Shown here piece by piece: positions 31,481 to 61,822 of a stretch of 64,000 nucleotides of DNA. Below the pieces are notes generated by a model. It worked only from the letters and a program-made list of their open reading frames with translations, ran no database searches and was not told where the DNA came from. Position 1 is the stretch's first letter. Each line of letters starts with the position of its first letter. The position numbers and the translations under genes were made by a program. Source of the DNA: Cyanophora paradoxa CCMP329 (taxonomy: Eukaryota; Plantae; Glaucophyta); assembly GCA_004431415.1 (NCBI GenBank), contig QPMI01000453.1, forward strand, positions 598,330-662,329. The letters run 5' to 3'.

Positions 31481-31789
31481 CCAGCCGATGGTCCCCCGAG
31501 GGCCCTACAAGCTCGCGTCGACGCATGAAGATTCTTAATGTGGCCTGGGTCTGACCGCTGTGCGCGCAGGGACCCACACCCCCTGCCCCCGCCGCCCCCT
31601 GCACCCGGTACCCCTGGTGCGAGCCCCGCGCCGTGCTCCAGCTAGACCATGGCCTTCTTCCTTCGACGCGTCGACAAGCGCGTCGACGCGTAGAGATGAT
31701 TCCTTCTTCGAATTGTAGATATACGCATGTGTGACGCATGTGCAACGCATATGCAAGGCATGCGCAACGCATGCGCAGTGCACGTGTGT

Positions 31790-32260: not shown

Positions 32261-32700
32261 AGGTTTCTAGGGAGATGGTCGTAGCGAGACGAGGGCACCA
32301 TGTGCCCCACAATCGTTTCTTTTCGAACTGGATATCTTTGGATGGGAATTAGTTATATTAGATCCAAGTGTATCATAAGAACGGCAATGAAAAGGGCTTT
32401 CAGAATATATAAAAAGGTCGGGACTCGCAAATTGACCTAACCCGTAAGAGTCCGCCGAAACGTCCGACAAGCACTCAAGGTCGACAGGCTGAGTCTTACC
32501 CGATAGTGTCATCATGAAAACTGACCTCGATGTATGACTCTATAACCACTCAACAACAGCATTTATATTGCATATAAAGGCTTAAAGAAGCCTCATACAT
32601 ATCTGTTTCATTGGGCAAAGTTTGTTGGAACGAGATTTCGGAAACAATCGCTGCCATGCCCCAACGTGCCCCAACATCATGGCATGCTCTGCGCATGCGG

Positions 32701-32997
32701 GGGCCTGGAGGGTGCGGGCCTTCGCGCTCCGCATTGCTGGCAGCGAGAGGCCTCCACGGGCAAGATTGCTAGAGGCCTAGGGGAGGGCGCTGCGCATCTC
32801 GCGCGGGGGGTACGGCAGCGCCTGGGCGACGGGGGCCCGAGGTGGGGCGGCCGCAGGAGGGGCTCTTCGGAGGCTGGCCCGGGGGCCTGGACGGTGCGGG
32901 CCTTCGCGCTCCGCATTGCTGGCGAGAGGCCTCCACGGGCAAGATTGCTAGAGGCCTAGGGGAGGGCGCTGCGCATCTCGCGCGGGGGGTACGGCAG
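32701..32997. repeat. ~180-bp tandem repeat; the second copy is truncated by the viral left end
   Basis: GGGCCTGGA.GGTGCGGGCCTTCGCGCTCCGCATTGCTGG...GGGGGGTACGGCAG occurs at 32701 and 32882. The first copy continues CGCCTGGG, while the second runs straight into ACACATATTG. Confidence 0.9.
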
Positions 32998-33092
32998 ACA
33001 CATATTGAAAAACGAATTTAAATCCCTCGTTCATCTCGATCGCTTCGCGATCTCGATTCACTCTGGATTTAAATTCGTTTTTCAATATGTGT
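32998..33092. other. Left terminal hairpin: 28-bp perfect stem around a 39-nt insert with inner stem GATCGC-ttc-GCGATC
   Basis: ACACATATTGAAAAACGAATTTAAATCC (32998-33025) is the exact reverse complement of GGATTTAAATTCGTTTTTCAATATGTGT (33065-33092). Confidence 0.9.
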
Positions 33093-33782
33093 TAATTTAA
33101 TACAAAAATACATATTTATCGATTAATTTCTTTAACTTTTTATGCAAACTTTGTATAAATTAATGCAAACTTTGTATTAAAATGATAAACGCGTTTAATT
33201 TAATGCATATTCACGATTGATTCAATCGATATTATATCGATAGATTATGTTCTTTGTCGATTACATATATAACTTCGATTGATTAACATTAAACTACTTA
33301 AAGAACGATATAATCGCGATTAATTCGCATAAATTCGCATAAATTCGCATAAACTCGATATATCTCATCGGTATTGAAGTAGACCACCGCCCATTTTGTA
33401 TCGGAAAACGCAAAAACTGTCACAGAGTTGCATTATGTCCAATTAAACAATCGATGGGATTGCGGATTTACATTTTTGCACCGAAAAAGTGTCACAGAGT
33501 TGCATTATGTCCAATTAAACAATTGAGAAGATTGCGCGATTTTCTATTGGAATATATCGGAACTGCATCATGTCCAATTAAACAATCGATGAGATTGCTG
33601 ATGAACATTTTTGCATCGAAAAACTGTCACTGAGTTGCATTATGTCCAATTAAACAATCGATGAGATTGCATATGTTCTATAAAACAGAATAATTGAGAT
33701 CAAGTGTGACAGGTAGTATTCAAATGATATTCAGTAAGAGATAGTTTTGTTTTTGAGAAAGTCAGTAAGAGGGGTGGAATGT

Positions 33783-34223
33783 CTGTGACGCCTGTGACGG
33801 CTGTGACGCCTGTTTTCAGAAGTCTGTCATTTTTGAAAATTTTAAAAAGTTTGAAAGTAGGTGTCACAGGCGTCACAGGCGTCACACTCAATTAAATTAG
33901 GTGTCACAGCGAAATTGCAGACCATTTCCAGTAAGACAACTTCGCATTTTCGGAAAGGTGGATTAATGGATAGTGTTTTGTAGGTGTCAGAGGTGTCACA
34001 AGACGGATTTCAGTAAGACAAGAATATATTTTTGAATATCTCAGTAAGAGAAAGAGATTCCATTTTTAATTGGGTGTGACGCCTGTGACGGCTGTGACGG
34101 CTGTTTTAAGAAGTCTGTCATTTTTGAAAATTTTAAAAAGTTTGAAAGTAGGCGTCACAGGCGTCACAGGCGTCACAGTCAATTAAAGAGGCGTCACAGT
34201 CAATTAAATAGGTGTCACACCCG
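33783..34223. promoter_or_regulatory. Two inverted-iteron modules in the left TIR (putative replication origins)
   Basis: Each is (TGTGACGSC)x3, a ~50-bp AT-rich spacer, then (GGYGTCACA)x3-5; located at ~33783-33909 and ~34066-34223. Function is inferred. Confidence 0.6.
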
Positions 34224-34278
34224 ATTATCTGACCATTTTCAGTAAGACCATCTGAAATTCTGAATTTCTCAGTGTCAA

Positions 34279-34680
34279 CTAACTCGGAAATCGCAATACT
34301 CTATGTTTCTCCGATTTCTCCAACCCTGAAAACACACCTGTTATTCTCTCATCTATCTCATGAGATACTCTCGTGGTTTTCCTCTCTGCTTCTAATCCAC
34401 AACTGAATATATCAATCGCCAACATACCTTCATTTGAGTAACAATGAGCAGTGCAATGGCTCTCATCCAGCAGAAGAACCATTGCAAAACCAGGAGGAGA
34501 AATACCACCATCGAAAATCTCGCAATGCTTGTGAACTACTCGAATACCTTGCTCTTGAATAATAGTTTGCAAGAACTGCATTAACCACCTGGTTGTTGTC
34601 TCCAAGTCCTCCATTCCTACTGCTAATTGGGTTCTGAATTTGTAATCCAGCATCACATGGAAGCCTCGATGAGTATTCAT
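34279..34680 (-). CDS. speD: Prokaryotic-type pyruvoyl-dependent S-adenosylmethionine decarboxylase proenzyme (AdoMetDC family)
   Basis: 133 aa; GFHVMLD...GFAMVLLLDESHCTAHCYSNEGMLAIDIFSCG retains the E-S autocleavage site, the HxxxH motif and the catalytic Cys. Confidence 0.9.
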   Translation of the reverse strand: MNTHRGFHVMLDYKFRTQLAVGMEDLETTTRWLMQFLQTIIQEQGIRVVHKHCEIFDGGISPPGFAMVLLLDESHCTAHCYSNEGMLAIDIFSCGLEAERKTTRVSHEIDERITGVFSGLEKSEKHRVLRFPS

Positions 34681-34682
34681 TT

Positions 34683-34871
34683 ATGAATAATTTAGAAAAA
34701 TTAAAAAACGCGATTGGTAGAATGCGAACCATCTTAGCAAGAGTGCTACCATATGAGTTGGTGGATATCATTCTGCTGCACTACCACAAGACCTGTCCAA
34801 ACTGCTTTGATACATGCATAATCACAAAGGGAAAATGGGGAAAGATCCTCATTTCTCTCTCAAAGATCTAA
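34683..34871 (+). CDS. Small hypothetical protein (LPYELVDIILL, CxxC)
   Basis: 62-aa ORF that exactly fills the gap between its neighbours. Confidence 0.35.
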   Translation: MNNLEKLKNAIGRMRTILARVLPYELVDIILLHYHKTCPNCFDTCIITKGKWGKILISLSKI

Positions 34872-35140
34872 TCAAAATATAATACTACTGGTTTATCATC
34901 TATCACAATTCCTGATGTAGTCTTTTTTCTGTAAGCATGAGAGGATTTCTTGTTGCACTCTCTGCATCCACTTCCCCTTACATGATTAAATGGGTAGGTT
35001 TGGAGGATCTTGTTGCATTTGAGGCATCTAACAGAGACCTTCTCTTGTGCTTTCTTATAGACTGTCTCACTGTAATCGAATTTAGCATCACCATGAACCA
35101 TCATTGCAGACTCTATGAATTTCTTTGTTTTATCATCCAT
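34868..35140 (-). CDS. Single Zn-ribbon repeat protein (DUF723-like)
   Basis: FIESAMMVHGDAKFDYSETVYKKAQEKVSVRCLKC...NHVRGSGCREC, the same repeat found in 55495-56460. Confidence 0.75.
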   Translation of the reverse strand: MDDKTKKFIESAMMVHGDAKFDYSETVYKKAQEKVSVRCLKCNKILQTYPFNHVRGSGCRECNKKSSHAYRKKTTSGIVIDDKPVVLYFD

Positions 35141-35167
35141 CCCTCTCTCTATATATACCTGAGATTT

Positions 35168-35997
35168 CTATGGAGCAGTATCCTGCCCGAAAATGGGGAA
35201 GTAGCGATTTGTGCCGTAATATTCTGCATATGTATTCTGTTTTGCAATAGCATCGGTTCTCTCAGCATAGAGAATGCATTTGTAGATACCAAATCTGGTG
35301 GCTCTCACCAAGAACTGGTAATCTTCAAGACCGAAATTCACACCATGATAAGCGATTCCGAAATTGTCATATGGAGTGATCACAACTGCAATATTTGGGG
35401 TTCCACCCTCTACTTGACAGACAGCATAAACATCTGGTGGGATATCGACAACCACCTTGTAGTGGTCACCAATCTCAACAAGAGAATCAACTACTGATGT
35501 CTGCTCATTCACAACAATTGGGAAGATCTTGATAATATATGGTGCATTCATACTGGGGACATAGGTGCGAATTCTGGTGTTGGGATCAATGGGATTGGGT
35601 TGATCATTTACGAAAAGAGGCGCACCAACAGCTCCACCAATCCGAAGACCATCACCAATATATGCTCCCCCGTTTTGCAGTTAATAGCTCCCGACCGAGA
35701 TTCAAAAGAATAAGTAGAAAGAGGATCACCATAACTGTCTGGGTCTCCATAGTGGGCAGAAAAGTTTGCATTTGTGACAAGGAGTTTCGTTGTCTTAACT
35801 ATACCATTATTTTTATCACACCTGAGTTCCTGCAATCTCAGTTTGTGGGTGGAACCAAATGTATTCATGGTAGGTTGCACTTCTGTGGATTGGAGACCTT
35901 CTACATCATCAAAGGTAGCATGCTGCAAAACGTGATTCGCAGGTGCTGCTAATGATAGTTGGGGTGTAATAATTCGTTCTGGTATTGGGGCAGCCAT
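35168..35997 (-). CDS. Putative virion accessory protein A (~276 aa once a +1 G is restored at 35667-35671); paralog of 36021-36914
   Basis: ORFs 35608-35997 and 35168-35551 join as ...KTGGAYIGDGLRIGGAVGAPLFVNDQPNPIDPNTRIRTYVPSMNAPY. The C-terminus VVDIPPD...VVITP...ILYAERTD resembles tail/fibre C-terminal domains. Confidence 0.65.
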
Positions 35998-36020
35998 TTT
36001 ACATTAAAGTGATATATAAT

Positions 36021-37226: not shown

Positions 37227-40200
37227 TTATACTGTGACATTTTTAATTTGGTCTATTTGACTTTGTAAATCTTTGCATTTCTGCGATAACTCCTTCACTG
37301 CTTCAATGAGAACAGGAATTAAACCTGTGTATTCAAGAGATAGGTAGCCATCGTCTTTTTTAACATTAACTACCTCTGGTATTACCTTTTGAACATCTTG
37401 TGCAATTAAACCTAATTTTGTTCCGTCTTTTTCGCTTCCAATTCGTTTAAAACTTACTCCTTCTAATCTCTCGATTGCTGAAAGAGCGCCGGTTATCTTT
37501 TTAATATCTGTTTTGTATCTTATGTCACTTCCTTGTGTTAAATACCCTCCTATCCACATCCATCCTCCATGATACATGTAACAAATATCAGTATCTTGTT
37601 CATTTCGGAATACAAGGGGAATATCTCCCCCTCCTTTCAAATATGTAGAAGTTTGGTTACCGAAATGGATACGATTATATCCATCACTTGAACTAAACCA
37701 AGTCCCCACAGATCCTGTTAAGATATTTGGTTTACTATAAACGTTATTCCAATGAATATAGCCGGTGTGACCACCATAACTATTTCCTACCCAAATTTTC
37801 ATGTAACTAATACCCATAATATGAACTCTTCCAATCTTTGGTCTAATCCGAATAGTGAGGAATCTATTTCCAAGATGTATTGGAACATTATTTAAACCAC
37901 TGTGGTTACCATCAGGCGATGTGGCGTATGGTTGATAACTATTCACTGATGTAATAAAAACTTCATTCCCTTGTCTATTAACTCCCCAAATTTCAAAAAG
38001 TCGTGAGTTAGTCCAAGGTAAATAGGTTAAAAATGCTGTTCCTGTGTGGTATCCATCGGGTATATCGAAGTCAATCCAAGCGGTAGAAGTTTCGTCATCA
38101 GATTGATTATTATGGACATATGAACCATAATTATAATATGGATCCCATGCTGTACTCCATGCCCATGTCCAACCCTCAGAACATCTATTAAATGCAATAC
38201 CTCCTACTGTTTTATCTGCTGTGTGAAACTTTGGGACATCATTACCGTTTATTTGGAGTTTGGTAGTAGCATTAATAGTGGATGCTGTAATAGTATTATT
38301 CACCCAAAAGTTACCGTTACCATATGATTTTAAGATTGCTGCATCCGCTGAGTTTCTAAATTCAATTGACACACCGTCAGCATTCGGTCTCCCTCGTATA
38401 TATGTGCAATCGCCATTACCAAACCAAATTCGCTCGACTGCATCTACTGATTTTAACCATGTATTTGTTGGCCATGTTGCTGTTCCTGGGAGGTCTGCGG
38501 CTGAGTAAAATGATGGTTTACTAAATACGTTATCCCAAGAGATCATGCCCAATTCATTATCAGTTGCTCTCTGTCTGCTCCACCCAAAAACACCCGTTAG
38601 ATAAATGCGACCTTTTCGACCTTGAATGTATATCTTTGTGTAAAACTCACAATTGATTGAGGCAAACAAAACAGTATTATGTGTCCCATCTTGATAAACT
38701 GCCTGGATTCCCTGATAGGCATTTACTCGTTTTAAGAAATGTTGATATCCATTAGTTGTTTGCCCATAGATATCGAAATATCTGCAATTATGCCAAGGCA
38801 TGTGCTGGATGTAAAATGATTTCATACCTGTGGGGACATTCCACCTCATCCAACAGCCGCTACAATCTTCATCATTTTGTGGTGTTGTATAACATCCTGT
38901 TTGTCCTGTTCTTGCGATCCAATTCAAATTCCAGTTATTCGCGCTTCTATCTGTCGAAACCACATCTAATTGATCGAATTCATAACCTTTTGGAATTGTG
39001 GTTCCACCAATTTGTAAAGTGGTAGCATTTACAGTTCCTGTTACAGTTCCACCTGTGAGAGGTAGATAATTCGCAAGAGCTGATGTTAATTCGGTATCTG
39101 TAACAAAATCTGTAACAGCTAACTGTAATTCTGTATTTGTAACATAATCTTTGTTTTCTAAATAATCATCTGTAACAACACCGGAAAGGGTTGTATTGTG
39201 TAAGTTTTTCGCCGCCATTCTCTGATTGACTTCTAAGGCGCCACCTGATGTCGTTTTTATCCACGCCATCTCACATTTCCCATGATCATCTGTGGGTTGT
39301 CCCACAACAGGAAGGTAGTTTACAACTTTCTCCCTTGTGAACACAATTTTAGGTCTTGCTCCATCATATGCGCTTTGATCTGTAACGTTTATTTGAATAG
39401 CTGCTGAAAAATCGGCTACTTGTCCTGTTTCTCCTGGGTGATAATTCGTTACATAGATACTTGGGAAAGTATCATTAACTCCCACATTAAAATCGCCATC
39501 ATAAACTCCATTAACAATTGGATCCCTGGGTAATCTTACTGCAAGAGTTCCCACCATTGGGGTTCCTGTTTGACCTGTAAAAGTCCCATTGAGACTAACA
39601 TAATGATCATTCAAATACAATCTTTCAGGTGTATTACTTGATTGGTAAAGAGTGACTCCATTAAAAACGTTTCCGATTGCATTCAATTGTGCAAAAACTG
39701 GCTGTTGATCTATTTCGTCCCAATTGTGCCTATGTGTGAAATCTGTTATTTGCGCTTTTGTGTGAGTATGGTCAAAATCTGTAATATCTGCTTTGACATG
39801 TTTGTGTGCAAAATCTGTGATTTGCGCTTTTGTGTGAGTATGGTCAAAATCTGTAATATCTGCTTTGACATGTTTGTGTGCAAAATCTGTGATTTGCGAT
39901 TTTGTGTGAGTATGGTCAAAATCTGTTATGTCTGCTTTAACATGTTTATGGTCAAAATCTGTGATCTGATCTTTGGTGTGTGTGTGGTTTTGTATCCAAC
40001 CTTGAACCACATTTGATGTTGTATAGTTTGGAATCACAGCATTTGAAGAGACGATTAAATTTTTTATATGAACATATTCAGCCGAAATTCGTAGATTATC
40101 AGGATAGTAAAGCGGCTGAGTTATTGGAAATCCATATGTCTGTTGAATGTAATATCTCACCTGTTGTTTCTCGCCTTCTGTCAAAACTCTATTGAAAACA

Positions 40201-43154
40201 ATGAGTTCTGCAAACTCACCCCAGTCGTGTCTTGTTCCAAAAAAATTAAATGTTGATGGCGGAAGCCAGTTTCCAGCTACTGTTCCTAAATGCTTCCCGT
40301 TCATTGAATATGATATACTTTCGGAAGTCACAGTGGTGTCCCAGTATGCATGTTTATAATTTGCGTATTCTTCATAAGGCATATGGACATGTGGAAGGTC
40401 ATTATATGTTGGGGTTCCATATTGCATGTTTATTCCAGCTGCTGTGTTAATATATCTATTCATGCCCATTTGCAAACAGGGGGGCTTACTGTCCAATCTA
40501 TAAAAGTTCCATAGTTAACTTCAAACACTCCTTCATCAGCAACATAAAATACTCCATTTGTGTATGAATCAGATCTCACATTACCCACATAGAAGAATGT
40601 TAACCCATTACTCCAATCCACGGTATCTGTTCTATTTGTGGTCAAACCAACACTTCCCGAACCAGAATTTAAAGTGATTTGATTGTTCAATAAAGGACTT
40701 ATCTTAAAGTATGATGTATTGGGTGAACTTCCTGTCAAAGCATACAAATTTGGAATGAATGGAATTGCTAATGTGGATCGGTTGCCGATTGGTTTTGCGT
40801 ATGCATTTTCAAGATCGGCATAACCTGATGGTTTAGCTGCCATTACACAATTCGGAATTGTAAATGCCGGATCTGTATTTGATGTAACAGGGTAATATGG
40901 TGTGTTATAAAAGACATCGACTTTTGTATTTCTATCTCCAATAAAAATATTACTTGTCACTGTAAGATTTCCATTCACTTTTAAATTACTCGTCTCTATA
41001 TTGCTACTGTAAATATTACTATTTACCGTAAGGTCTCCTGTGATTGTCCCACCAACAAGTGGAAGATACTTAGATAATTCATCTGCAAGTTCAGGTTTTG
41101 TAACATAATCTCCAAGCATAGCAAGAGTAACGAAATTAACGAGAATTACAGCCGTTAGGTAATCTTCTGTTACCACTCTCGAAATAGTCTCATTGTGAAT
41201 ATTCTTTGCAGCCATCCTCTGATTGGCTTCCAGAACCCCACCATAGTTTGTTTTAATCCATGCAAGCTCTGCCCTTCCATAGTTATCATTTGCAGTTCCC
41301 ACTATGGGAATATAGGAATATTTATCTCGACTGAAAACTATCATTGGTCTTGATCCATCTAGACTGCTTACATCTGCTACATGAACCTGTATAGCAGAGT
41401 TGTAATTTTGGTAGGTTGCTGGGTCTGTTGGGACTCTGAATGTATCTGTGGGAATGTCAGCCTCCATGTAGCTTGACACAAAGATATTTGGTATGGTTGC
41501 TCCTGGTTCTGGTGGTGGATTATAAGAGCCTGGTAATGTCCTAATATGAAGTGGTCCTCTCATAGCTGAATTCGCAAGTGTCCCATTCACATGAACATAG
41601 TGGTGATTCAAAAAGATCCTTTCAGGGACATTGCAAGTCTGGTAAAGAGAAACTCCCAGAGTAGCAAGAGGCTCAACTTTTGCAAATTCTGGTTGGTCAT
41701 TGATCTCATCCCAGGTGTGTTCATGGTTGCTTGCTGCAAACTTATCTGGAATCCCATCAATATCACCCCAATCATGCCTGTGGTCTTCTGGTGGGTATTT
41801 CTGTGGTTTGCCTAAGATCTCATCCCAGTCATGATTGTGATCCTCTGGGGGATACTTTGCAGGTTTATTATTAATTTGTTCATAATCAGGAAAGAACTCC
41901 CAGATCTCAGGTCGAAATCCATCTGGTAATAATTCTTCATGGGGTTCATATGGTTGCTCATAATCAACAACTGGTGGTTCGAGACCATCTGCTAAATATT
42001 CCTCATGGGGTTCATAATTCTGCTCATACTCATACTCTTGTGGATCTAAACCATCTGGTAAATACTCTTCCTCATTGGGATCATATTGATCATATTCATA
42101 CTCTTGTGGGTCGAAACCATCAGGTAGGTATTCCTCCTCATCTGGAACGAATTGGTATTCGTCAAGCTCCAAAATATCAATTTCAGGAGGTAAATATTGC
42201 TCATCAATTTGCTTTCTTGGTTCAATTATCGGTTTATTTCGAACCTGCTCCCAACTCACAATGTGTTGACCAAAAGGAACTGTCTCATCTGCTGTGTATT
42301 CTCTTCCTGGTTGCTTTTTGGGTGTTAAATCTGGTGGATCCCATGGTAGTGGGAAGGGAACTGGGACAGGTCCATAATACTCAAAGATCTCTCTTATGGT
42401 CTTCTCACTTACAAGTTTCTCTCCATTTGCATAGACATTGCTTCCATGGATATTTCGCCATTGTCTGGTTCTAATACCAAGATCTTTGGTGTTTGTCACC
42501 AAAGGTAAAAGGTGCCTATCCATTTCGACAAGGTCTGGGTGTAAATGAACTGTTACTGGTTGAGTGGGGCTACTGTTGACAGTGATAGACGCCTTATTCT
42601 TTGCTGTATCACCAGGTAGTTGGAAACCGAATTGCGCATTAGAAGCCGAATTCGCCACAATATCTCGTGGATAAACATTGTTAGTGAACTCGATTTTGTT
42701 GGTTTCTCCATGGGGGCTATCTGTAATATTTCGGGAATTTGTGCAATTGCATTTGATCCTTCATTATAGATTCTCAAACCACTCTGATGCCACCCTTCTC
42801 ATTTTGAACATTGAATATTAACCTACCACTATCGAATCGAGTTGGAATATCTGGATGGGTTCCACTGGTTTTCAGTTTTCTTGGTCTGCTCCTGGTTGCT
42901 TTAATCTGGGCTACTTGATTCGATTTCACATTCCCCATGCTGAAAGCAACACTCACATCCTCCTTTTCGGGATCCATTTCGTTTATTGAAAGTGCATGCT
43001 CTCTTGGGTGAGTCTTTGAGGGTTCATCTGCACTGTGATCAATTGAGATTGACCCTCTGGCTGTCAAGTTATCGAAATTCACATGTTTGTTATCTGCCTT
43101 CCCTCTTCCTGATGAGGGAATGGTTTGAAGGTTTGCTGGGTAATTGAAACTCAT
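37227..43154 (-). CDS. Giant fibre/spike protein (~1970 aa across three frameshifts) with HxH tail-fibre repeats and a C-terminal peptidase S74 chaperone domain
   Basis: ORFs 42774-43154, 42553-42777, 40460-42658 and 37227-40496 overlap end to end. Contains HTHTKAQITDF repeats and ends SDIRYKTDIKKITGALSAIERLEGVSF...GLIAQDVQKVIPEVV...YTGLIPVLIEAVKEL. Confidence 0.8.
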
Positions 43155-43203: not shown

Positions 43204-44744
43204 ATGCCCCTTCGTGTAATTCTCTCATTATCAGGTGGGGAGCTCGTGGTATAATTATTACGAGATTGTTAAAAGAAATCGAAACTCGAACAGGAAAAAG
43301 AGTAATTGACCTTGTTGATCTGGTGAGTGGAACATCCACTGGTGGGATAATTGCGATTGGTCTCAATGTGAAAAATCCCGAATTTCCAAACGAACCTAAA
43401 CTTACTGCAACCGATTTGCATTCCACTTATCTCAATCAACTCCCCTTAATCTTTGCAAATCCCAGAAATATTATTGATAATGCACTTTTCAACACCAAGT
43501 ATGATGTGACCCCATTGGAGACAGCCATTCTCACTGTTACTGGTGAGTCTCTCATTCAAGACTCTCTCAAAGATGTAGTGATCACAAGTTTTGACACTGT
43601 GAGTATGAAGCCCATTTTTATCACCAATGATAACTCCTACAAATCCATCCCCAGCAAGATTGCTGCAAGATCCACCTCTGCTGCTCCAACATATTTCTCA
43701 CCTGTGAACTATGATGGGATGTCTCTAATTGATGGTGCAATCTCAGGTAACAACAATCCCAGTGTCTGTGGTTACAGTCATGCTAAGAAGATCTATGATG
43801 ATGATGATGATATTATAGTGATAAGTATATCCTGTGGTGAAGTCAATGAAACAGATGCTCCAAATGTGGGTTACTCTTATGAAGATGTGAACAGCTGGGG
43901 CATCCTCTCTTGGATTGCTTCGACCTCTGGAAGTCCATTAATCAATATGTTGATGGCTGCAAGTGAACTGTCTGCTCTGGAAAAGATGCAAGAGTTTCTC
44001 CCATACAATGATGATCAAGGATATGCAAGATATTATAGACTCTCTGTTCCACTTCCAAAGACCATAGTAAACTCTTTGGATGATACCTCTAAAATACCAG
44101 ATATGATAGATGCAACCGAAATATATATAGCAGCAAACACTGTGATGATTGATAGACTCTGTGATTTACTGGTTGCAAATTACGAAATCAAGAACCCTGC
44201 AAGGTTCTATATATCATCCACTCTGAATAACATACCTCCCATTGATGCTAACTGGTATCTTCTATCAGATGGTGCATTCACTGCTTCATCATCAAAAATT
44301 GGAAGGGAGGCATTTAAAGCAAGACCTTCCTTGACAGGTTGGGAAGCAAATGCATCTGCTCCTGATGGGATATGGAGTGTTCCCACTGAGTATCTCCAAG
44401 TAACCTTCCCATACATATTTGAGGTTGCATCTATAATTGCATATGGTTCTGGTGTAACAAACGCTTTTATTAAGACCTTCAATGTTGCAACATCACAAGA
44501 TGGTGTTTCCTGGTCATTTATCAAGTATGAAGGTGTCAACAGAGTGTTTATGTGTGAAACTATTAATAATGCCCACAACAGTGGTGATGTCTCATACAGT
44601 TCTGGGTATCCCACCTCTATTAGAGACGTTTTCTATATTGGCTACCCTCTGAGGACAAGGTATATTCGAATTTATCCACTTGTATACATCAACACCCCAA
44701 CTATGAGAGTGGATGTCACAGGTGCATTTATTCGAAGTGTATGA
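43204..44744 (+). CDS. Patatin-like phospholipase fused to a C-terminal F5/8 type C (discoidin) domain
   Basis: Restoring one G near 43237-43240 gives MPLRVILSLSGGGARGII. Also GTSTG, ARSTSAAPTYF and LIDGA, then EYLQVTF...FIKTFNVATSQDGVSW...RTRYIRIYP...MRVDVTG. Confidence 0.88.
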
Positions 44745-45209: not shown

Positions 45210-46625
45210 CTATTTCCTCTGCCCTCTTCGTAGATTGAATCGAGTTTGGGGTGCAGTATATGTTTCTTTGGTGGTTGAAAAGTCATTATACCACCTCTGA
45301 CTGTTGACTTCTGATAATTTCTGGGTTCCTGCTATGGTCAACTTCTTTAATTCTTTCTCTACTCTACCCTTCTTTTGTGCTCTTGCTTCTGTGAGGGTTC
45401 TTTTGGTATTTCACTTGCTTTTTCTATGCCCTCCTTTCTGATTGCTGAATCAACCCTGGCTTCCTCCTTTGCCTGTTCAAGAGCATCCACTGTGGGAGTT
45501 TCATGATACTCAACACCTTTAATGGGCAGCAGTTCATGAAAAGCGAATCTACCATCAACTATCTCACCACTGGGACTTCTGATTCTGAACTTGAAGCCCT
45601 CTCTGCCCTCCACACTATAAACAATTCGAGACCAATTAACCCCTTGCTTTGCAAATGGATTCTTTTCAACTTTCACTCTCACAAACATTCCAGGTTTCAG
45701 GGCATCAAGATACTCAATCGATTTCTTGAATCTCTGATCCTCCATATTCACTATCTCTTTGTAGTGGGCTTCTGTGGTCTCTGCTGGTTTTCTCTTGGTT
45801 GCAGAGTGAATGGTATTATTATAATTATACTCAATATCACCCAACACATCAAAAAATCGTGCAGTATTATTTGCAATGCAGTAGTTTGTGATCAATCTCT
45901 TGATCTGTCTGTTAAAGGCTTCAATTCGACCTTGGGTTCTGTGATCTGCAACATCACTTAGTTGATGCTCAATGAATTTTGTTCCCAAATAATCTGTGAA
46001 CAACACATTGGTAAATTCGCTTCCACTGTCACTCTGAATGCGAACAATTGGTCTGGGGACTCTCTGTTCAAGTTGCTTGAATGCTGCAAGTGTAGTAAGA
46101 GCACTCTTGTCTCTCATTGGAATTATGAACCCTGTTCTCAGGGTTGACTCCATTGCACTCATAAATGTATCATAACCATCATTCTGCTTTTTGTATGCAG
46201 GAAAGAAGAGCAGATCAATCACATAGGTATCAAGGGGTTGCCTTATTGGAATCATGGGATCTCTCTTTCGAGATAGGGTGGGTGCATTAATCTGGACGAC
46301 CTCCTGCTTATCATACCACTCTCTCATCTTCTTGTAGTTCTCCTCTGGTAGTTCCTGTCTCATTGCAGTAATCCCTTGTAGCCTGTCCTGGGATCATAGA
46401 ACTTCTTAGCAATCTTCGACTCTTTTGGTGCTGTCTCAGCTGGGAGGGTCTCTGGATTAATTGCTTGACCATCTCTGATCTTTTCAATATTCGACTGCTC
46501 TTCTCCTCCACTGGAACTGTGATGGGCAGGATATTCCCTCGATCTTCAATTGCCTCTTTTCTTACAATTCTGGGTGGTTGTCTCAATCCTATTTGTGTAG
46601 AAGGCATCTTTACCTTATCTCTCAT
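45210..46625 (-). CDS. Retroviral-like (rve) DDE integrase of Polinton type, frameshifted near both ends
   Basis: Core ORF 45359-46363: YVIDLLF...RIQSDSGSEF...QGRIEAFNRQIK...YNNTIHSATKRKP. An upstream frame adds KFYDPRTGYKG. Confidence 0.92.
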
Positions 46626-46790: not shown

Positions 46791-49700
46791 TTAGAGCCCA
46801 AATGGAATGCTGTGAATTCCATCGTCTAATATCTTCCTTTTGCTATCGAGTTGGTTTAGAGCCACCCTTCTGCTCTCCAAATCATATAGGTTGTGGTCTT
46901 GCCTTCGCTTGTTTACTACTGCTACTGTTTTGGTGATGCCTTCAAACAGGCATCTCTTGAAATCATCAAAGTGAACCTCTTTGGAGGAAGTCCCAGACAT
47001 CTTTATTTTATCAAAGGTCTCAGTTCTGAAAGCATAGAGTTTCGATCTCAGACCTACATACTCCACAATCTTTGCATTTGGAAACTCGTTTTTATATTTA
47101 CCTGGAATCAAACGATTGCTCCTATCAAAGAGAGGGTGGGTGGGATCATAATTACTGCAATCCAGGTGTCCAGCAATTCGCTTCATCTCATTATTTAGAT
47201 CATTGGTATGCAGCAGGAGACAGAAAGAATCTGTATCATGGAATAGTAGCTCTGCTGTTTCCCAAGTTCTCCTCACCACATCATAAAAGAACCTGCTATT
47301 GTGGAGTTTCGCGAAATCCAGCACAAAAGCACCAATTGCAACAGGTTTATCTAAGTGAACATGCTTGGAATACATCTCAAAGGCAACAGCATTTTCGTTT
47401 AATACATTGGTTGCCTTGATGAGTGGACTTGCAGCATATTTCTTGCAAAGTTTCTCACTGTTTGCAATCTTTACCACAGAGCGACCCCTGCATGATTCGA
47501 GGCATTTACCATAGATTGCATTGTTCATTAATTTAAAGAAGTCACTCTCGAATCTGGACATAGATTGGCGCCTCAGTTTCGTATTTAGATCAATATAACT
47601 CTTCATGAATGCAGAGGTTGCAAATGAGAGAACCCTGTGAACCTTCGTGATTATAATACCTTTGCTCACAAGATAGATCAAGAGAGGTTGGGAAATCACA
47701 TAGTTATTTTGGGTGAGAATGTTGCAGTGAGTTTGGGGTCTTTGCTTATCTTCTCACCTGTGATATCCAGTAACTTTCTTTGATACCCACCCAGCATTTC
47801 GGTGGTGACATGTCTTTATTAACTACAAGTGGAAAATCGTAATGATCTGTGAGAGTTTGTGGGTATTCCAGGTCAACTTCAATAAAGGCACTTCGTCCTT
47901 GGGTCTCTTTAAGTGCCTCTGAGACATCTTCCCATCGAAAATCTCCAATGGGCAGTTCTTGACTGAGAGCAAAACCATACAGATTATTTGCATCCAAGAG
48001 AACTATATGGTCATCTGGGTTTTCCACCTTTGCATATCGAGTAGGCATTGTAGCAAACCCACCTCGAATTGCTCTCTCAATGAATTCGTATTGCCCTACA
48101 TCACTGATCTGCTCGATCTTTGCTCTGGTATAAATGAGCATTGCATCCCAGGATAATCCAGGAGCCGAAACATAGTGGGCAGGATCCAATCCATATTGGG
48201 AAAACGCCAATTCTCGGAAAGTCTGGAATTTACTCATAAGATCACCAGAATCCACTGCCTGGAAGTCCATGAAGTGCGAAGCATCTATGAATTTCCACAT
48301 GCCCCATTGCAGGGAGAGGTATTGATCGAAATTCTTGCTCAGGATCTCAACACGAAGTTTATCATCTTGCTGTGCAATTTTGCGGAATATTTCGTGTCCA
48401 CATTCATCCATGTGATCCACCACAATTGCTACTTTCGTTTGCTTTGAGATTCTCCTGTGGAGGTTGCAGTTTCGACATGCTTTTCCAATAAAGCTCCTGA
48501 TTGATGACAATGGTCTCTACTGGGAAATTCTCATGGGTAAATCGTTCAGCACAGATATAACAGTGTTTAGTGATCTTGTATTGTGCTTTCTGCTCTTCTG
48601 TGAGTGGGTGCATTGGAATATTGGTGAATAGAGTGCGGATTACTTGGGGTCTGATCTCTGTGAGAGTGGTAAACAGAGCACCAAGTGGATCTGATCCCTC
48701 GAAATAATGAGAGATCACCTCATCCCCCATCACAACTGTTAGAGAAACCGATTTTACCTCTCTCTTGCTGCGGTTCTCATCAATTGGAACCGAGTGACTA
48801 TCCATTTTCACATAGCAGATAGTGGGAAGCCACACAGTTTTGCGAAGATGTTGAAGCCCAAATGCAATGTGACTTCCAGATTTGGGCATTTACCTTTGCT
48901 CTCCCTCCAATCAATGCAGCGATTGCTTCTAATGAATCCAGCTTCTCCTGAGTTCTGAAACGAGACAGGCAGGTCTCACATAATAAATGCGACCATCATG
49001 GGCTTTATCAAAGGTGGTTTTCAGAGTCGACTCAGAGACATATGGTGATATAATGCCTCTATCATCCTCTTCGTTTTCGATTAATAAAAGGTTAATCTTG
49101 GTCTTTCTCCTCGGGTTGCTGGATTGTGAGAGGATAGAAGCACTGTGCTTGATTATCTGCACCATAAATGTTGATTGAGTTCAGGGTTCTGCTCCTCAAA
49201 TCGATCAATGATTCTGCATCACAGGCAACTGGAAACTGGATGCCTTCGAAATTGAGTTCGTTTAACCATCTTCTATACTGGCTGGGTTCATTGCTCTTGT
49301 GTTTATTAATGTCTTTCGGTGCAGGTAAGCCAAGATTGCATACTTGAAGCAGTCTTGACCATCAATATTCTTGACATTCACAGTTGCTCTCTTTATCCAA
49401 TCCACTCAGGTGTTGAGAAGAAGCAACCACCCACAGGAGCATAAGACATTATACCACTCTCAGCATCTCATGCGATCCAGTCTGTAACTGTCACCTGCAT
49501 CATCTGTTCCTGCATTGCTTGAAGTGCATTTCGCAGTTCAACATCAATATTTCGTGATCTTGTGATGACAAAGTAATCACTATAAATGAATTGGTGATCC
49601 ACACCCTTGGATCACTCACTTTGGTGAATTACAAATGAAGGTCAACCGAGTCTTAATTGCTCTCAGGTCTTGGAGTTTCTGTCTGAGTCTCTGGGTAGAG

Positions 49701-50038: not shown

Positions 50039-50093
50039 CTTTTACTTTAAGGGAACATATTATTTTGGGCGTTTTAAACGCATTTCGCATTTT

Positions 50094-50604: not shown

Positions 50605-52996
50605 TCAATCAGTATTAGAATCGATTCTGTTTTGTTTACTCATCCCACCTTCAACATCACTGTCATCCACCAACTTGCGACTATGCTTCTTTTTGATCCC
50701 AAAGTAGCCACGAGCAAGAACACCATTGACTCGCTTTCTCTCAGCCTTCACATTAAAGACTTCGCGAAGTCTCTTCAAGATAGTGCATTCTGTGATTTTC
50801 TCATCAGATTTGCCCATGTGATCATCTTAAAGTGACTGATAATGGACTCACTTGTGGCGAAATCCCCTTGACTCTTGGTGAGTTCATAACTCTCACGAAT
50901 CCATTCTCCAATCTTGTCATTCTCATTGAAATATTCAACACCTTGATCAACAATGGACTGGGGTGGTTTGGTGACGAATTCATTGAGAGAATGGGTTCTC
51001 CACATTTCCAGGAGAATGGACATATGCGCCATTTTATAATCGTCATCATTCTTCATTAGGCGCATGAGAGTGGTGTCTGCTTTCTTCTCACCAGGCTGAG
51101 GATCGACCTTGAAGACATTTTCGAATCGGTAGTAGATAATTCGCCTTTGAATTGCTGCATCTGGTTTACTGATTCCCAAGTTGTCATTTGTGGACAAGAA
51201 CAACTGGAACATGGGAATGAATGTAACAAGATCTTTGAAAAGAGCTCGAACCTTCATCTCATTCCCACCAGTAACCTGTTTGATTTTGTTCAGTTGAAGC
51301 ATATCACCATCTTCTGCTTCATTACTGAAAACAATTCGTTTACCAAGAATGCAAGCGAGTTCTGGGGAAGCCTCTGACGAACTCTTCTTGGGTTTAGTCC
51401 AATATGTCATGTCCAGTGACCCATAATACTCACCAAATGTGTCTTTCACCAACTCTTGGAGCAGTGATTTCCCATTTGCTCCAATTCCAGTCCAGCAAGT
51501 GTATCTCTGATTTTCTGTCAAACCACTCAGGGCATAGGCGATTAATCCCAGCATGAATTCGCGGTCTGTATCCGATTCAATAATATCTGCATAGATGGAT
51601 TTAATCTTTGCAACCTTCTCTTGGTCAATTTCTGTGGTGTAATCGTAGCCAACAGTCTTACTCACCATATCATCTGGGAGTCCCTGTCGAAAAGTCATGG
51701 AGTTCAGGTCAAACACACCATTTGTAAATCCAATGATGTTGGGAACAGTATCAAGTCTCTCGAAAAAGGTCTTGTCACTGAACAGAACTGAAAGATCAGA
51801 CATAAGTGCAGTTCTGTATGTAGTCTGTTTGAGGCTCTTAGCAATTCCCAGCAGAATCTTTGACCTTTCCTCCAAGGAATTGCGGTTCTCTTCATCACGA
51901 AGTGCTCTCTGTGCGAGTTGAACAGAACGTTGAAGATAAACTGGACAGACCTTGCAGCTCAAACAGAGAAAGATTCGCTTCCCAGTTTCATCCATCTCCC
52001 AAATCCCACATACATCATTGAACTTGAACCAGGTCTTGTTGGAATACTTGTATTTGTCTTGCAGAACAAGATAGGCAACCTGTGCAACATCATAATGGGC
52101 ACCATCAGATCCAGCAGACCGATCAATCAGATTTTCGATCTTCACATCTGTCTCTTCCTTCACACGAACTGTGATGCTTCGCTTTTTGCAGTTTGCACTG
52201 TAACTCGAAACAATATATTTGTCCTTCTCCTTCCCTTGAACAATATACCAATTGTTCGAGTCATGGCTTCCCTTGCAGCAGGGACAGATCAGACCTTTGT
52301 TCTCAGCAGTGAAATTGTATCCCATCTTGGTCTCATTGATGATTGTGGGCAAGATGAAACCGAATTCTTCCAGTTTAGAAAGAATATGTTTCTGCAAATT
52401 CTCCTCAGCGCACCTCTCAAAATAAGAATGTGCACCTTTGGGAATTCGTAGTTGTCAACAATCCACTTTTGCAACTCAGCAGTAGGTTCATTTAACTCAC
52501 ACTCAGATGCCCATGGCTCTCTGATCCATGTTTTGTTGGGACTTGGACAAACATTAATTACCCCAGCAGTCCCAGTGGATGCAATCGTTTTGCAGTCGAT
52601 CTTGGGGTTTCCTTTGAATGCACCTGCTTTATCCCAGATCTTAATGGTGTCGAATTCAGCAGGTCGAGCGAAATAAGCATGATATCCTTTTTTGGTTTTA
52701 GCAAGTGGATTAACACCACCGAAATCATCAGGGAATTGCTCCTCGAATTTGGCGAAATCCTCCTCTTGGTCGAAGTCAATAACCATGATATTACGAGCAA
52801 GAATGCCCCAAGCAGTATATTTACCGGATTTCAGGGCTTCATCGAATTTATCCCAAGTCCAGGATCCGTCTTTATGAGCGAAAAGCGGTCTCTTGGTATC
52901 AGGATCAACAGGAATTACGAGATTCTCAGACAGGACATCGTCTTCACGAAGCCAGTCAACAAGGCGTTTCAGGGATTTCTTGGCGGCAGCGTTCAT
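50605..52996 (-). CDS. Bifunctional primase-polymerase (Prim-Pol/AEP) fused to a D5/P4-like SF3 helicase, with two frameshifts
   Basis: N-terminal WGILARNIMVIDFD...KTKKGYHAYF; Zn finger CPCC..HDSN; IGFTNGVFDL; Walker A GIGANGKS; Walker B IVFSNE; FLSTND; C-terminal RVNGVLARGYFGIK in ORF 50605-50817. Confidence 0.9.
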
Positions 52997-54642: not shown

Positions 54643-55425
54643 TTACAAACCTCTCTTATATCGCATCAGTTTATTCGAATGAACACCACTCTTGACCTCT
54701 TTGGGTGCTTCCTCTTTCTGTGGAGATGGTAGTTCATCTTCTTTCTTTTTGGGCTTCCTGTGGAACCGAGGAAATGGGAAATCTTTGACCAGATCCGCTT
54801 TATCAACATAATAGTTCACCGAATAATTTGCAGAAGACCACACAATATATTGGTAAGAGTGCACATACTCCTCAAACATCTTATAGAAATCGTCCTTGTT
54901 TCGCATGATATTATATTCCTCTTCAATGGCTTCGAGTTCTTTGCGATTTGCAGCACTCAGGAACACAGCATAATCCGAATTTACTCGAATTGTTGAAGAA
55001 ACCTTCCTCAGCTTCTGTGTGATGCAGATAATCGAGATTTTCGAATGGCGACCTCTGGAATAAAGAGATCCCACGATTTTGTCTCGGGTCAAATCAATGA
55101 TTTCGTTGTCTATTAGATCATCTAAGACCACACACAGGTGATTGACAGGTTCCCCTTTTTCGATTTTCTCCTGCCTTTCATCCAGTAATTTGGAAATGTA
55201 AGCAGCATCCCATTTCCCGAGTTGCAATGTTGCAACTGCATCCCAGAAATGATTGAAGGACGTCCCACTCACAACAAGAACAGTATCAATCTTTTTCGCA
55301 TCATGCAGCTGTTTCAACCAATATTTCACACATTCTGACTTGCCTGTTGCAGACTTTCCTATGAAAAGAGCACGAAATGGTGGGGTTATCATCTCAGATG
55401 CAACAAATTCTTCTAAATCGTTCAT
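54643..55425 (-). CDS. A32/FtsK-HerA family genome packaging ATPase
   Basis: Walker A FIGKSATGKS, Walker B LCVVLDD, and SRGRHSKISIICITQ...IRVNSDY. Confidence 0.93.
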   Translation of the reverse strand: MNDLEEFVASEMITPPFRALFIGKSATGKSECVKYWLKQLHDAKKIDTVLVVSGTSFNHFWDAVATLQLGKWDAAYISKLLDERQEKIEKGEPVNHLCVVLDDLIDNEIIDLTRDKIVGSLYSRGRHSKISIICITQKLRKVSSTIRVNSDYAVFLSAANRKELEAIEEEYNIMRNKDDFYKMFEEYVHSYQYIVWSSANYSVNYYVDKADLVKDFPFPRFHRKPKKKEDELPSPQKEEAPKEVKSGVHSNKLMRYKRGL

Positions 55426-55494: not shown

Positions 55495-56460
55495 TTAGAG
55501 AGATAAGAGGAATTGTTTAATGCACCGCTCAATATCAGTTTCTGTGTATGGGATGCGCAAGAGTTGGATATTGTTGGCTTCACAATAGCGGGTTTTAATC
55601 TGATCACGAATTTGCAGTTGCTCAAATGCTTTTTCTCCACCAAAAACCTCTACTGGTTCGAAGTGTTGGCGACCATCATACTCAATTGCGATTTTCAGAG
55701 CGGGAATATAGAAATCGAAGGGAAGTGCTTTTGTTTTACGACAGTCTTCAAAGGTAAATTGTCTGTTGTAATCAAGCCCAATTTCTTCCAAGACTGCTTC
55801 AATTGCAAGTTCACCTTTTGAGTTCTTGCAACGAGGGCAACCTCTATTCATCAGATGATTACAAGGAAGCTGATCGAATTCATTTGAGCATTTCATACAC
55901 TTGATGGATATTTTTGTTTTCTTGTTGACATACTTGACCTTGGAATAGTCATAGCGATCTCCATGGACTTCTTTCGCTTTCTCAATAAATAATTCTGTAT
56001 TATTTCGCCTGTGATGACCATTTTGTTGGAGAAAACATGCTTTGCACCCTTGCTTTCTCAAATGTGCATATGGTGCCTGCTCAAAGGTCGATTTACACCC
56101 ATTACACTTGATCAGAACTTTGCTTCTTGCATTCATATATTCAACGGCAGAATAATCATATCTGTCACCATGAACTTTCTTTGCCTCTTCAACAAAGGTG
56201 CTTTGTGGCTTCTTGCGATCATCATGAAGTTGTTTATCTCTGCAAGAAGGACATCCACCATTATTAACTCTTTTAGCCATGCAAATATGATTTCCAGCAA
56301 TTGTCTCAAAGTATTCCTGCAAGTTTTGCAAAACAGAGTAACCTTTGCATGGTATGACTTGTAAACAACCCGATCATATCCAAATTTATCTCCATGGGCT
56401 GCTTTGCTCTTCTCAATAAACTGTTCGATCGAGAGGGGTTTCTTTGTTTTATTATTGTAG
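55495..56460 (-). CDS. Three Zn-ribbon (DUF723-like) repeats plus a Vsr/DUF559-like PD-(D/E)xK endonuclease; frameshift near 56320
   Basis: Repeats F(I/V)ExAKxVHGDRYDYS...C..C...HL..GC..C, then LPFDFYIP..KIAIEYDGRQHF...DQIKTRYC...LLRIPY. An upstream frame supplies FIEKSKAAHGDKFGYD. Confidence 0.8.
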
Positions 56461-56542: not shown

Positions 56543-57913
56543 TTATAGATTGATTCGCCTCAGGCCGTCCTTATCGACTATAATGAAACTGTGCATGAGA
56601 GCACGAACATTAACAGTGATTGTCTGGTCAGAAGGCATGTATAGAGTGAGGAAAGAGGAGGAGGAGTTCGTGAGATCAACATAGCCAGACTGGGCAATGT
56701 TGCGAATCGCTTTCTCTCCATCAACACAGAATGGTAGACCACTGAGGACATATTTGTCTGCAACCTTGTCCATATTTGAGCACTTGAAGGCATCCGCAAT
56801 TAATTCGGCACCTTTGAGGAGAGGGATGGGCTCAGTAGCATAGAGACGTTGACCATTAATTTCAACAGTGAAAGTAATGTCTTTTGAGTTAGCATGCGTT
56901 TTTAGGACACTGTGGGAACCATTGAAACCATCTATACCTGCGGCATCACGAACTGAAACAAGAAGACCATAGACAAGACCAGAGATCTGTGACAGGTTAA
57001 TACGATTTGGCTGAGCATTGCCTTTTGCAGCAAAATTGACACTGTCTACGAAACCAATATCCAGAGCAGGAATAGCCATACCAGTGGTCTTCACCTTCTC
57101 AATGACAGTAGCAAACAGTTCATCAGAAACATTAATAGCATGCATGTAAAGACGAGGAGAAGTGACTTTAATTTCGGGGGTTGTTCCAGAGATGGTGAAA
57201 GTGGTGATTTGTTGACCAACATGGGCAAGAGTAGCATTAGCAGTAGCACCAAGTCCATCATCCTCTGTCTTATCAGCAGCTGTTCCACCAACAACTGGAA
57301 GAGCACGACCACCATAAGAAGTCTCAACATAACCCTTTCCAGCATCCTTGAACCAGACAGTTACCACCATTTCTCCTGAGAGAGCACCAAGAGGTAGGTA
57401 GTGGTTTAGCCATGGGACTGGGATTTCAACAAAGAATGAACCACCAAGTCGGTTGGTTCCATGAGCAGGGATACCATGAACCATTCCCATTGAACGCTTC
57501 TTCTTGGCGAGTTGATCCTCACTGTAATAGATAAGAGGGAAATGAGCAAGGAAATCAGAAGGCACATGGAATGTGTAAGATCCATAGGTGATTTCAAGTC
57601 GAGAGACAAGAGCACCAACTGGGCGAACGTATCCATTGCGAACAAGGTCGGTATCACCAGCAAAAGTGACAGCTGGAAGGTCAAACGCAAGTTCGAGTTT
57701 TCCACAGAAATTGTAGCGAGGGAGCTTGAACGAAATGCGATTTCCAGCATTATTCTCGAAAGTGTTGCTTGGGTTCACAACAACAAGAACTGGCTTCGAC
57801 TTGGATTCAAGACCAAGCATGAGAGAGTTGTCCAGGAAGAACGCCTTGGCTTCTTCCGGGGTTGTTAGAGCTTCTTTCAGAGAAAGACGTTGGAGGGTCG
57901 AAGTAATATCCAT
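56543..57913 (-). CDS. Major capsid protein (double jelly-roll), ~456 aa, intact
   Basis: Size and position between the ATPase region and the pentons; NAGNRISFKLPRYNFCGKLELAFDLP...GALVSRLEITYG resembles DJR N-termini; QSGYVDLTNSSS near the C-terminus. Likely start is MDITS at 57913. Confidence 0.8.
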   Translation of the reverse strand: MDITSTLQRLSLKEALTTPEEAKAFFLDNSLMLGLESKSKPVLVVVNPSNTFENNAGNRISFKLPRYNFCGKLELAFDLPAVTFAGDTDLVRNGYVRPVGALVSRLEITYGSYTFHVPSDFLAHFPLIYYSEDQLAKKKRSMGMVHGIPAHGTNRLGGSFFVEIPVPWLNHYLPLGALSGEMVVTVWFKDAGKGYVETSYGGRALPVVGGTAADKTEDDGLGATANATLAHVGQQITTFTISGTTPEIKVTSPRLYMHAINVSDELFATVIEKVKTTGMAIPALDIGFVDSVNFAAKGNAQPNRINLSQISGLVYGLLVSVRDAAGIDGFNGSHSVLKTHANSKDITFTVEINGQRLYATEPIPLLKGAELIADAFKCSNMDKVADKYVLSGLPFCVDGEKAIRNIAQSGYVDLTNSSSSFLTLYMPSDQTITVNVRALMHSFIIVDKDGLRRINL

Positions 57914-60230: not shown

Positions 60231-61822
60231 ACGAGAGTATCTCATGAGATAGATGAGAGAATAACAGGTGTGTTTTCAGGGTTGGAGAAATCGGAGAAAC
60301 ATAGAGTATTGCGATTTCCGAGTTAGTTGACACTGAGAAATTCAGAATTTCAGATGGTCTTACTGAAATGGTCAGATAATCGGGTGTGACACCTATTTAA
60401 TTGACTGTGACGCCTCTTTAATTGACTGTGACGCCTGTGACGCCTGTGACGCCTACTTTCAAACTTTCTAAAATTTTCAAAAATGACAGACTTCTGAAAA
60501 CAGCCGTCACAGCCGTCACAGGCGTCACACCCAATTAAAAATGGAATCTATCTCTCTTACTGGGATATTCAAAATATATTCTTGTCTTACTGAAATCCGT
60601 CTTGTGACACCTCTGACACCTACAAACACTATCCATTAATCCACCTTCTCGAAAATGCGAAGTTGTCTTACTGGAAATGGTCTGCAATTTCGCTGTGACA
60701 CCTAAATTAATTGAGTGTGACGCCTGTGACGCCTGTGACGCCTACTTTCAAACTTTTTAAAATTTCAAAAATGACAGACTTCTGAAAACAGGCGTCACAG
60801 CCGTCACAGGCGTCACAGACATTCTGCCCCCCTTACTACTCTTCTCAAAAACAGAAATATATCTTACTGAATATCATTTGAATACTATCTGTCACACTTG
60901 ATTTCATTTATTCTGTTTTATAGAACATCTGCAATCTAATCGATTGATCAATTGGAGACCATGCAACTCTGTGACACCTAAGTTATTGAGTGTGACGCCT
61001 GTGACGCCTGTGACACCTACTTTCAAACTTTTTAAATTTTCAAAAATGACAGACTTCTGAAAACAGGCGTCACAGCCGTCACAGGCGTCACAGCCGTCAC
61101 AGGCGTCACAGACATTCCACCCCTCTTACTGACTTTCTCAAAACAAAACTATCTCTTACTGAATATCATTTGAATACTACCTGTCACACTTGATCTCAAT
61201 TATTCTGTTTTATAGAACATATGCAATATAATCGATTGTTTAATTGGACGTGATGCAGTTCCGATATATTCCAATAGAAAATCCGCAATCTGATCGATTG
61301 TTTAATTGGACATAATGCAACTCTGTGACACTCTTTCGGTGCAAAAATGTAAATCCGCAATTCCATCGATTGTTTAATTGGACATAATGCAACTCTGTGA
61401 CAGTTTTTGCGTTTTCCGATACAAAATGGGCGGTGGTCTACTTCAATACCGATGAGATATATCGAGTTTATGCGAATTTATGCGAATTTATGCGAATTAA
61501 TCGCGATTATATCGTTCTTTAAGTAGTTTAATGTTAATCAATCGAAGTTATATATGTAATCGACAAAGAACATAATTTATCGATATAATATCGATTGAAT
61601 CAATCGTGAATATGCATTAAATTAAACGCGTTATCATTTTTAATACGAAGTTTGCATTAATTTATACAAAGTTTGCATAAAAAGTTAAAGAAATTAATCG
61701 ATAAATATGTATTTTAGTATTAAATTAACACATATTGAAAACGAATTTAAATCCAGAGTGAATCGAGATCGCGAAGCGATCGAGATGAACGAGGGATTTA
61801 AATTCGTTTTTTCAATATGTGT
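60231..61822 (-). repeat. Right terminal inverted repeat (1592 bp) with three iteron modules and a terminal hairpin at ~61728-61822
   Basis: Reverse complement of the left TIR, with an extra ~275-bp duplicated block (~60693-60968 vs ~60969-61250). Ends ...TTCAATATGTGT. Confidence 0.95.

Follow-up and report, generated by a model that had tools for sequence, protein, structure and literature searches.

What does a lone decarboxylase gene do in a small virus integrated into the genome of an alga? The gene in question lies in the 64-kb stretch of Cyanophora paradoxa DNA analysed here (64,000 nucleotides, referred to as the window) and encodes a 133-aa protein. An earlier note, made from the sequence alone, read this protein as an S-adenosylmethionine decarboxylase (AdoMetDC) that would either boost polyamines or consume SAM to blunt methylation. 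Our analysis leads to a different reading that we hold to be somewhat probable, namely that the gene product is a self-cleaving, pyruvoyl-dependent arginine decarboxylase (SpeDA), encoded by a viral accessory gene that would make agmatine from host arginine, and not a SAM decarboxylase.

The decarboxylase gene is the first ORF at one end of an element that spans positions 32998-61822 (28.8 kb) and has a GC content of 40%, against 67-68% in its flanks. In its length, which falls in the range of 15-40 kb, its terminal inverted repeats of 1.4-1.6 kb and its low GC relative to the host, the element agrees with the description of a polinton-like virus (PLV), and with its genes for packaging (the ATPase), replication and integration (the rve match being weak) it is a PLV (Table 1). 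The capsid candidate has a sole sequence homologue, EukProt protein P0095 (60%), and its predicted fold reached a pLDDT of 33. The patatin-F5/8 fusion has been reported for glaucophyte and rhizarian PLVs (PMC12220804). A neighbouring ORF at 35168-35551 gave weak Atlas leads. Several frames are split in this copy, which counts against the reading adopted here, in the regions of the protein-primed polymerase (46791-50041), the primase-helicase (50775-52996) and the likely minor capsid protein (59004-59700). A 1-nt indel at 34701-34703 is present in nearly all aligned contigs, which suggests that some of the frame breaks are assembly errors or specific to this copy.

Both ends of the element (32998-33089 and 61731-61822) are near-perfect palindromes of about 90 nt, with a DNA fold of -29.5 kcal/mol, which suggests hairpin-like termini, here in an element that also carries a protein-primed polymerase and an rve integrase. 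Both terminal repeats (33775-34250 and 60366-61150) contain a GTCACA-rich unit of about 130-290 nt, which is also present once internally (50426-50585), upstream of the polymerase region, and is a possible origin or promoter element. At the junctions of the element no target-site duplication was seen, and blastn returned no match between the two flanks. A GC-rich host coding frame (61823-62209, minus strand) that encodes a membrane segment and then a TPR-like stretch runs into the element at its right end and has no continuation in the left flank; its product presumably resembles TmcB-type proteins. Next to the left end (31000-32997) lie GC-rich repeats about 180-200 nt long, with an exact 76-nt duplication that stops at the junction.

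Table 1. Features of the integrated element, with positions counted from the first letter of the window.
Feature	Position	Strand	Evidence or remark
Left terminal inverted repeat	32998..34374		ends in a palindrome of about 90 nt and has GTCACA-type repeats inside; the decarboxylase gene has its 3′ end here
SpeD-family pyruvoyl decarboxylase proenzyme, likely arginine decarboxylase (SpeDA)	34279..34680	-	uninterrupted ATG-to-stop frame (34680-34279); predicted cleavage E73|S74; H79, C94
Two fibre-like genes, the first with a terminal S74 chaperone domain and a phage tail repeat	37227..42523	-	PF13884, PF12789
Fusion of a patatin-like lipase with an F5/8 (discoidin) domain	43266..44744	+	PF01734, PF00754
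Retroviral-type (rve) integrase	45359..46363	-	PF00665, E 0.001, under cut-off (weak)
Protein-primed family B DNA polymerase (pPolB), several frames in this copy	46791..48889	-	PF03175, E 2.9e-6 on 47746-48411; frame map
Prim-Pol primase and D5-like helicase, two overlapping frames	50775..52996	-	PF09250, PF08706, PF19263
A32-type packaging ATPase	54643..55425	-	PF04665, E 3.5e-11
Zinc-finger endonuclease-like gene	55495..56280	-	a short relative at 34868-35140 adjoins the decarboxylase gene
Likely major capsid protein, 456 aa, divergent	56543..57913	-	12-18% of members in its ESM Atlas neighbours carry Capsid_N/Capsid_NCLDV, with recognition under the threshold; no Pfam match
Right terminal inverted repeat	60231..61822		96-97% identical to the left arm; one additional repeat unit of about 290 nt
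Exact duplicate of the decarboxylase gene's final 31 codons plus stop codon	60231..60326	+	in the right repeat; tblastn 100% over residues 103-133

The 133-aa protein matched the Pfam family AdoMet_dc (PF02675; E 6e-11, 43.1 bits against a cut-off of 25). Residues 49-87 of the Thermotoga maritima AdoMetDC align with it without a gap, such that S63, H68 and C83 fall on S74, H79 and C94, and the equivalents of this Ser/His/Cys set are named as essential for processing in excerpts of PMC10407285. An AlphaFold model built on a 21-sequence alignment reached a pLDDT of 90, and its five best PDB fold matches were all class 1b AdoMetDCs (the top ones including 1tmi, 1vr7, 1tlu and 2iii), so the protein as modelled has the class 1b SpeD fold. 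As a point against the arginine reading, the window copy carries Asn83, a position held by Asp or Glu in 161 of 181 distinct family cores. Contigs from five runs guessed to be RNA lie over the gene, one of them spanning 34265-34761, and we base no conclusion about expression on them. None of the 30 element ORFs scanned with Pfam is a spermidine synthase, and tblastn of the 64-kb window found neither SpeY nor agmatinase. In these respects the earlier description holds up: an intact SpeD homologue with its cleavage site and cysteine, standing alone in an integrating virus.

Comparison with relatives pointed to a particular branch of this family. The core SPPGF..LDESH.[ST][AV]H[CS]Y is present in all 54 near-length homologues, and its sequence places the window protein in the SPPGF subfamily of marine Poseidoniales, to whose members it is 39-45% identical over the full length. 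The best 80 of 436 genome matches were Marine Group II archaeal records, except for one labelled Yoonia. When seven class 1b phage proteins, among them the three validated AdoMetDCs of S-PM2, P2559S and YS40, served as the outgroup of a tree, the SPPGF subfamily was split from them at 100/99. The window protein and the Poseidoniales loci shared a clade of 32 rows supported at 100/100, a clade that holds relatives of the assayed proteins and not their own sequences, so that membership of the assayed SpeDA clade is judged by taxon, single copy and neighbourhood. According to excerpts of PMC10407285, proteins of Poseidoniales, Gimesia, Solirubrobacter, Nannochloropsis and Tribonema form one clade, and tested homologues from Poseidoniales and marine groups II/III, Gimesia, Nannochloropsis and Tribonema acted on arginine only among Arg, Orn and Lys.

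The genomic surroundings of the cellular genes are consistent with this activity. A SpeY/DHS homologue (PF01916) lies near the gene in 150 of 157 cellular loci, which are partly redundant, and in the seven others the sequence stops within 194 nt of the gene at a contig end. The SPPGF family was found in 78 of 81 sampled Poseidoniales genomes, and all five Poseidoniales genomes looked at for PF02675 and the agmatinase family PF00491 had one gene of each, adjacent or fused in three. Of 73 longer forms of the SPPGF family, 67 are fused to PF01916 and one to PF00491. The linkage of the decarboxylase with SpeY makes sense because SpeY couples agmatine, as described in an excerpt of PMC13625781. By analogy with the tested relatives, we consider it likely that arginine is the substrate of the window protein, which the earlier note had named as one possibility, and that the proenzyme would be cleaved between E73 and S74. 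Two further arrangements within the family were seen. In some proteins (P0132, P0135, P0156, P0158, P0159 and P0165) SpeDA is joined to a methyltransferase of the NNMT/PNMT/TEMT type (PF01234) and to SpeY; one or more of them come from a eukaryotic transcriptome, and these fusions may make an N-methylated polyamine. Large phage-like contigs also carry SPPGF-family genes, with no SpeY nearby (L001:10001-10378, L002:6781-7182 and L006:9653-10198).

Among viruses, the nearest relatives with genomic context are three genes on giant-virus contigs (L008-L010; 45-50% identity), one of which (L008) encodes an NCLDV capsid, an ERV oxidase, RNase III and a D5 helicase. The window protein, P0002 and the giant-virus clade grouped at 99/93 (99/87 in another tree), and this grouping makes an exchange of the gene between a PLV and a giant virus likely, in whichever direction it took place. 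The closest viral branch is 45-55% identical to the window protein and could have undergone a renewed change of substrate. The family also occurs in a second, unrelated PLV group: four IMG/VR contigs (L003, L004, L005 and L007) carry a separate 125-aa SpeDA-like branch near an ATPase-capsid block, together with an A32 ATPase, a 450-aa putative capsid, a primase-helicase and a lipase. L007 also carries a SET-domain gene. The SpeDA-like gene was present in four of the 80 best loci out of 111 with the second group's capsid, the four being those that had seeded the query. The capsids of the two PLV families had no detectable similarity to one another (probability 0.7%). A single origin for the decarboxylase genes of both groups was weakly rejected (AU test, p 0.048), and on this basis two origins of the gene in PLVs are favoured. 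IMG/VR held no relative of the window capsid, and single-sequence patterns found none there of the window decarboxylase; free viruses of the window's PLV lineage were thus not found.

If the protein is an arginine decarboxylase, self-cleavage of the proenzyme at E73|S74 would create the pyruvoyl group, and the mature enzyme, which would need neither PLP nor SAM, would convert host arginine to agmatine during viral replication. Neither the element nor the three giant-virus loci nor the 80 PLV loci yielded a gene that uses agmatine. Because the element has no downstream enzyme, we infer, as the weakest step of the proposal, that the agmatine would be handed to enzymes of the host or of a co-infecting giant virus, giving more putrescine or homospermidine; alternatively, agmatine itself might serve as the cation. 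The resulting polyamines or cation would then aid translation and DNA packaging; the route through polyamines is the one proposed for the arginine decarboxylases of pelagiphages in excerpts of PMC9992855. A polyamine-related role, as the earlier note had suggested in its first alternative, is plausible.

The same enzyme might have the opposite effect, in that draining arginine, or leaving agmatine as a dead end, would handicap a co-infecting giant virus and integrated copies would defend the host. Several points agree with such a role: a gene that converts agmatine does not accompany the decarboxylase; in Imitervirales, according to excerpts of PMC9992855, arginase, ODC and HSS lead from arginine to homospermidine, while AIH/NCPAH were found in chloroviruses only; and PLVs are described as antiviral elements in an excerpt of PMC12220804. 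However, the closest relatives of the window gene (L008-L010) are the giant viruses' own gene, which fits a pro-viral role better, and the tested SpeDA enzymes of the clade work slowly, with a kcat/Km of 20-180 per M per s in excerpts of PMC10407285. Since giant viruses retain the same gene, we favour a supply of polyamines over an effect of lost arginine or accumulated agmatine and consider the defensive role unlikely. We give as little credence to its extension, that PLVs acquired a stand-alone arginine decarboxylase on at least two occasions as a metabolic weapon that starves the giant virus of arginine and polyamines, although if true this weapon would be the first enzyme-level mechanism for the defence of an algal host by PLVs.

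That the protein is a true AdoMetDC after all, making decarboxylated SAM for a host spermidine synthase or draining SAM to blunt methylation, is quite unlikely. The Pfam, PDB and fold matches are to AdoMetDC, and validated class 1b AdoMetDCs are known in algal giant viruses (PMC9992855). Yet the window protein scored 42.1 bits on the AdoMetDC equivalog model TIGR03330, under the cut-off of 75.65, and six relatives scored 43-65 bits, so that all seven proteins scored remained below it. Nor is the subfamily linked to spermidine synthase, which was found in none of the 81 sampled Poseidoniales genomes, against 10 of 14 control genomes, and was fused (PF01564) to none of the 73 longer forms. Homologues from Poseidoniales and marine groups II/III that lie in speB-speY clusters did not complement E. 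coli speD, and the tested members of the subfamily had no SAM activity, both according to excerpts of PMC10407285.

Individual residues bear on the same question. The positions of Trp70-Pro71-Glu72 in the T. maritima enzyme are Tyr-Ser-Asn in the window protein, and we take these three residues to have a role in SAM binding. The HxWP proline is missing from the window protein and from all 181 distinct family cores, and the FxPxG proline is retained in the window protein. We infer that the former is the diagnostic gamma proline of Fig. 8 in the excerpted PMC10407285; its loss is not a decisive mark, because the validated YS40 AdoMetDC also lacks it. Grouping the window protein with the class 1b outgroup was barely rejected, at a borderline p of 0.0485 (AU test). 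The name AdoMetDC, as used in the earlier note, is probably wrong, given a score of that size in a subfamily whose tested members decarboxylate arginine and whose fusions exclude spermidine synthase.

The proposed attack on methylation fares no better: depletion of SAM by the window enzyme is unlikely, because the tested Poseidoniales SpeD homologues decarboxylate arginine and not SAM, and it would call for a substrate on which the subfamily seems no longer to act. CpG is scarce in the element (o/e 0.59, with an excess of TG/CA); the left host flank has 1.11, and 47 free PLV loci have a median of 0.87 (range 0.66-1.16). This deficit would suit past methylation by the host, and is compatible with it, but is uninformative on the activity of the decarboxylase.

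A shift of the viral branch to ornithine or lysine would yield putrescine or cadaverine directly, with no need of a partner enzyme, and would so account for the stand-alone state of the gene. The speDC genes are independent of agmatinase in the excerpted account of PMC10407285, and one phage enzyme uses both Arg and Orn. Nevertheless, the four residues given there as diagnostic of SpeDC (Gln, Thr, Phe and Tyr) are absent from the window protein, whose core reads ESH, AHC and LAID, and we regard such a shift as distinctly improbable.

Copies of the gene were found in other sequence data. Of 24 listed runs, which all come from one organism, 14 contained half or more of the words of 34240-37200, and one may be the source of the window. 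The contigs of four such runs held several variants, with 8-26 differences over 80-180 nt, and identical variants recurred in runs of 2012 and 2024. Changes were counted from the best-supported rows only, with 58 and 10 further rows outside the count, in stretches of at least 80% identity and with variants pooled and unphased. Of 41 listed differences in the gene, four in a gapped zone were dropped, leaving 37 in codons 23-100, outside the terminal repeat. Among these, 25 were silent, against 20% silent sites (pN/pS 0.12, p 7e-10). Diverged copies in the same organism are under purifying selection, the reverse of the single copy free of selection that would have spoken against a function in the earlier note. 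Two apparent stop changes were set aside: one, read together with the neighbouring change that the same contigs carry, turns codon 76 into a Leu codon, and the other falls in the gapped zone outside the count. It is extremely unlikely that the gene is a neutral passenger, retained partly through its 3′ end in the terminal repeat, for while its final 31 codons and stop do fall within the repeat and the gene is patchy in PLVs (four of the 80 best loci in the second group), the excess of silent changes was measured outside the repeat and largely refutes this explanation, and in a more distant variant, read by hand, 8 of 10 residues are unchanged across 30 nt despite 11 base changes.

The presence of the domain in PLVs is already on record. 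Table S6 of PMC12220804 (2025) lists PF02675 in endogenous PLVs, in 66 of 156 glaucophyte elements, 45 of 706 from Rhodomonas lacustris, 17 of 57 from Cryptomonas pyrenoidifera and 10 of 177 from C. borealis. These genes share the domain with the window gene and are labelled AdoMet_dc only, and for the cryptophytes the match is at the level of the domain, not the subfamily. The main text of that paper has no mention of AdoMet, adenosyl, decarboxylase, polyamine or spermidine, PMC11633385 names no decarboxylase other than phosphatidylserine decarboxylase, and polintons have no mention in PMC9992855. A search for PLVs together with S-adenosylmethionine decarboxylase or polyamine found no relevant publication; subscription papers and other supplements may say more. 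What we did not find in print is the assignment to an arginine decarboxylase clade, the evidence for selection, the link to giant viruses and the second PLV lineage.

PLV genomes are small and hold mostly structural and replication genes, and a metabolic enzyme under selection in one of them is unusual. The gene is shared with giant viruses and so connects the two kinds of virus. Reading it as an arginine decarboxylase would correct an annotation that probably affects many PLV genes labelled AdoMet_dc. The enzyme is only 133 aa long and can be assayed in the existing E. coli speD system, and it also offers a way to ask whether PLVs feed or starve the polyamine metabolism of their hosts or helper viruses.

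Among known systems, the class 1b AdoMetDC of T. maritima (PDB 1tlu, 1vr7) is alike in fold (TM-score about 0.63-0.72) and in its processing residues, but it shares only 18-19% identity with the window protein, reads HTWPE where the latter reads HCYSN, and has a partner spermidine synthase. The viral polyamine enzymes described by Li et al. 2023 (PMC9992855) comprise the class 1b AdoMetDC of algal giant viruses, the SpeD-derived arginine decarboxylase of pelagiphages and the PLP-dependent arginine decarboxylase of chloroviruses, and have in common with the window gene that a small viral accessory decarboxylase feeds polyamine metabolism. The SpeD homologues of eukaryotic viruses validated there are true AdoMetDCs, unlike the arginine decarboxylase proposed here, and the chlorovirus enzyme has another fold and is accompanied by a full pathway, whereas the window gene is alone. 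The closest counterpart is the SpeDA of the Poseidoniales, Gimesia, Solirubrobacter, Nannochloropsis and Tribonema clade, which, in the excerpts of Li et al. 2023 (PMC10407285), shares with the window protein the class 1b SpeD fold, the S/H/C triad and the lack of a spermidine synthase partner; in contrast to that cellular clade, the window gene resides in a eukaryotic virus, alone, with neither speY nor speB.
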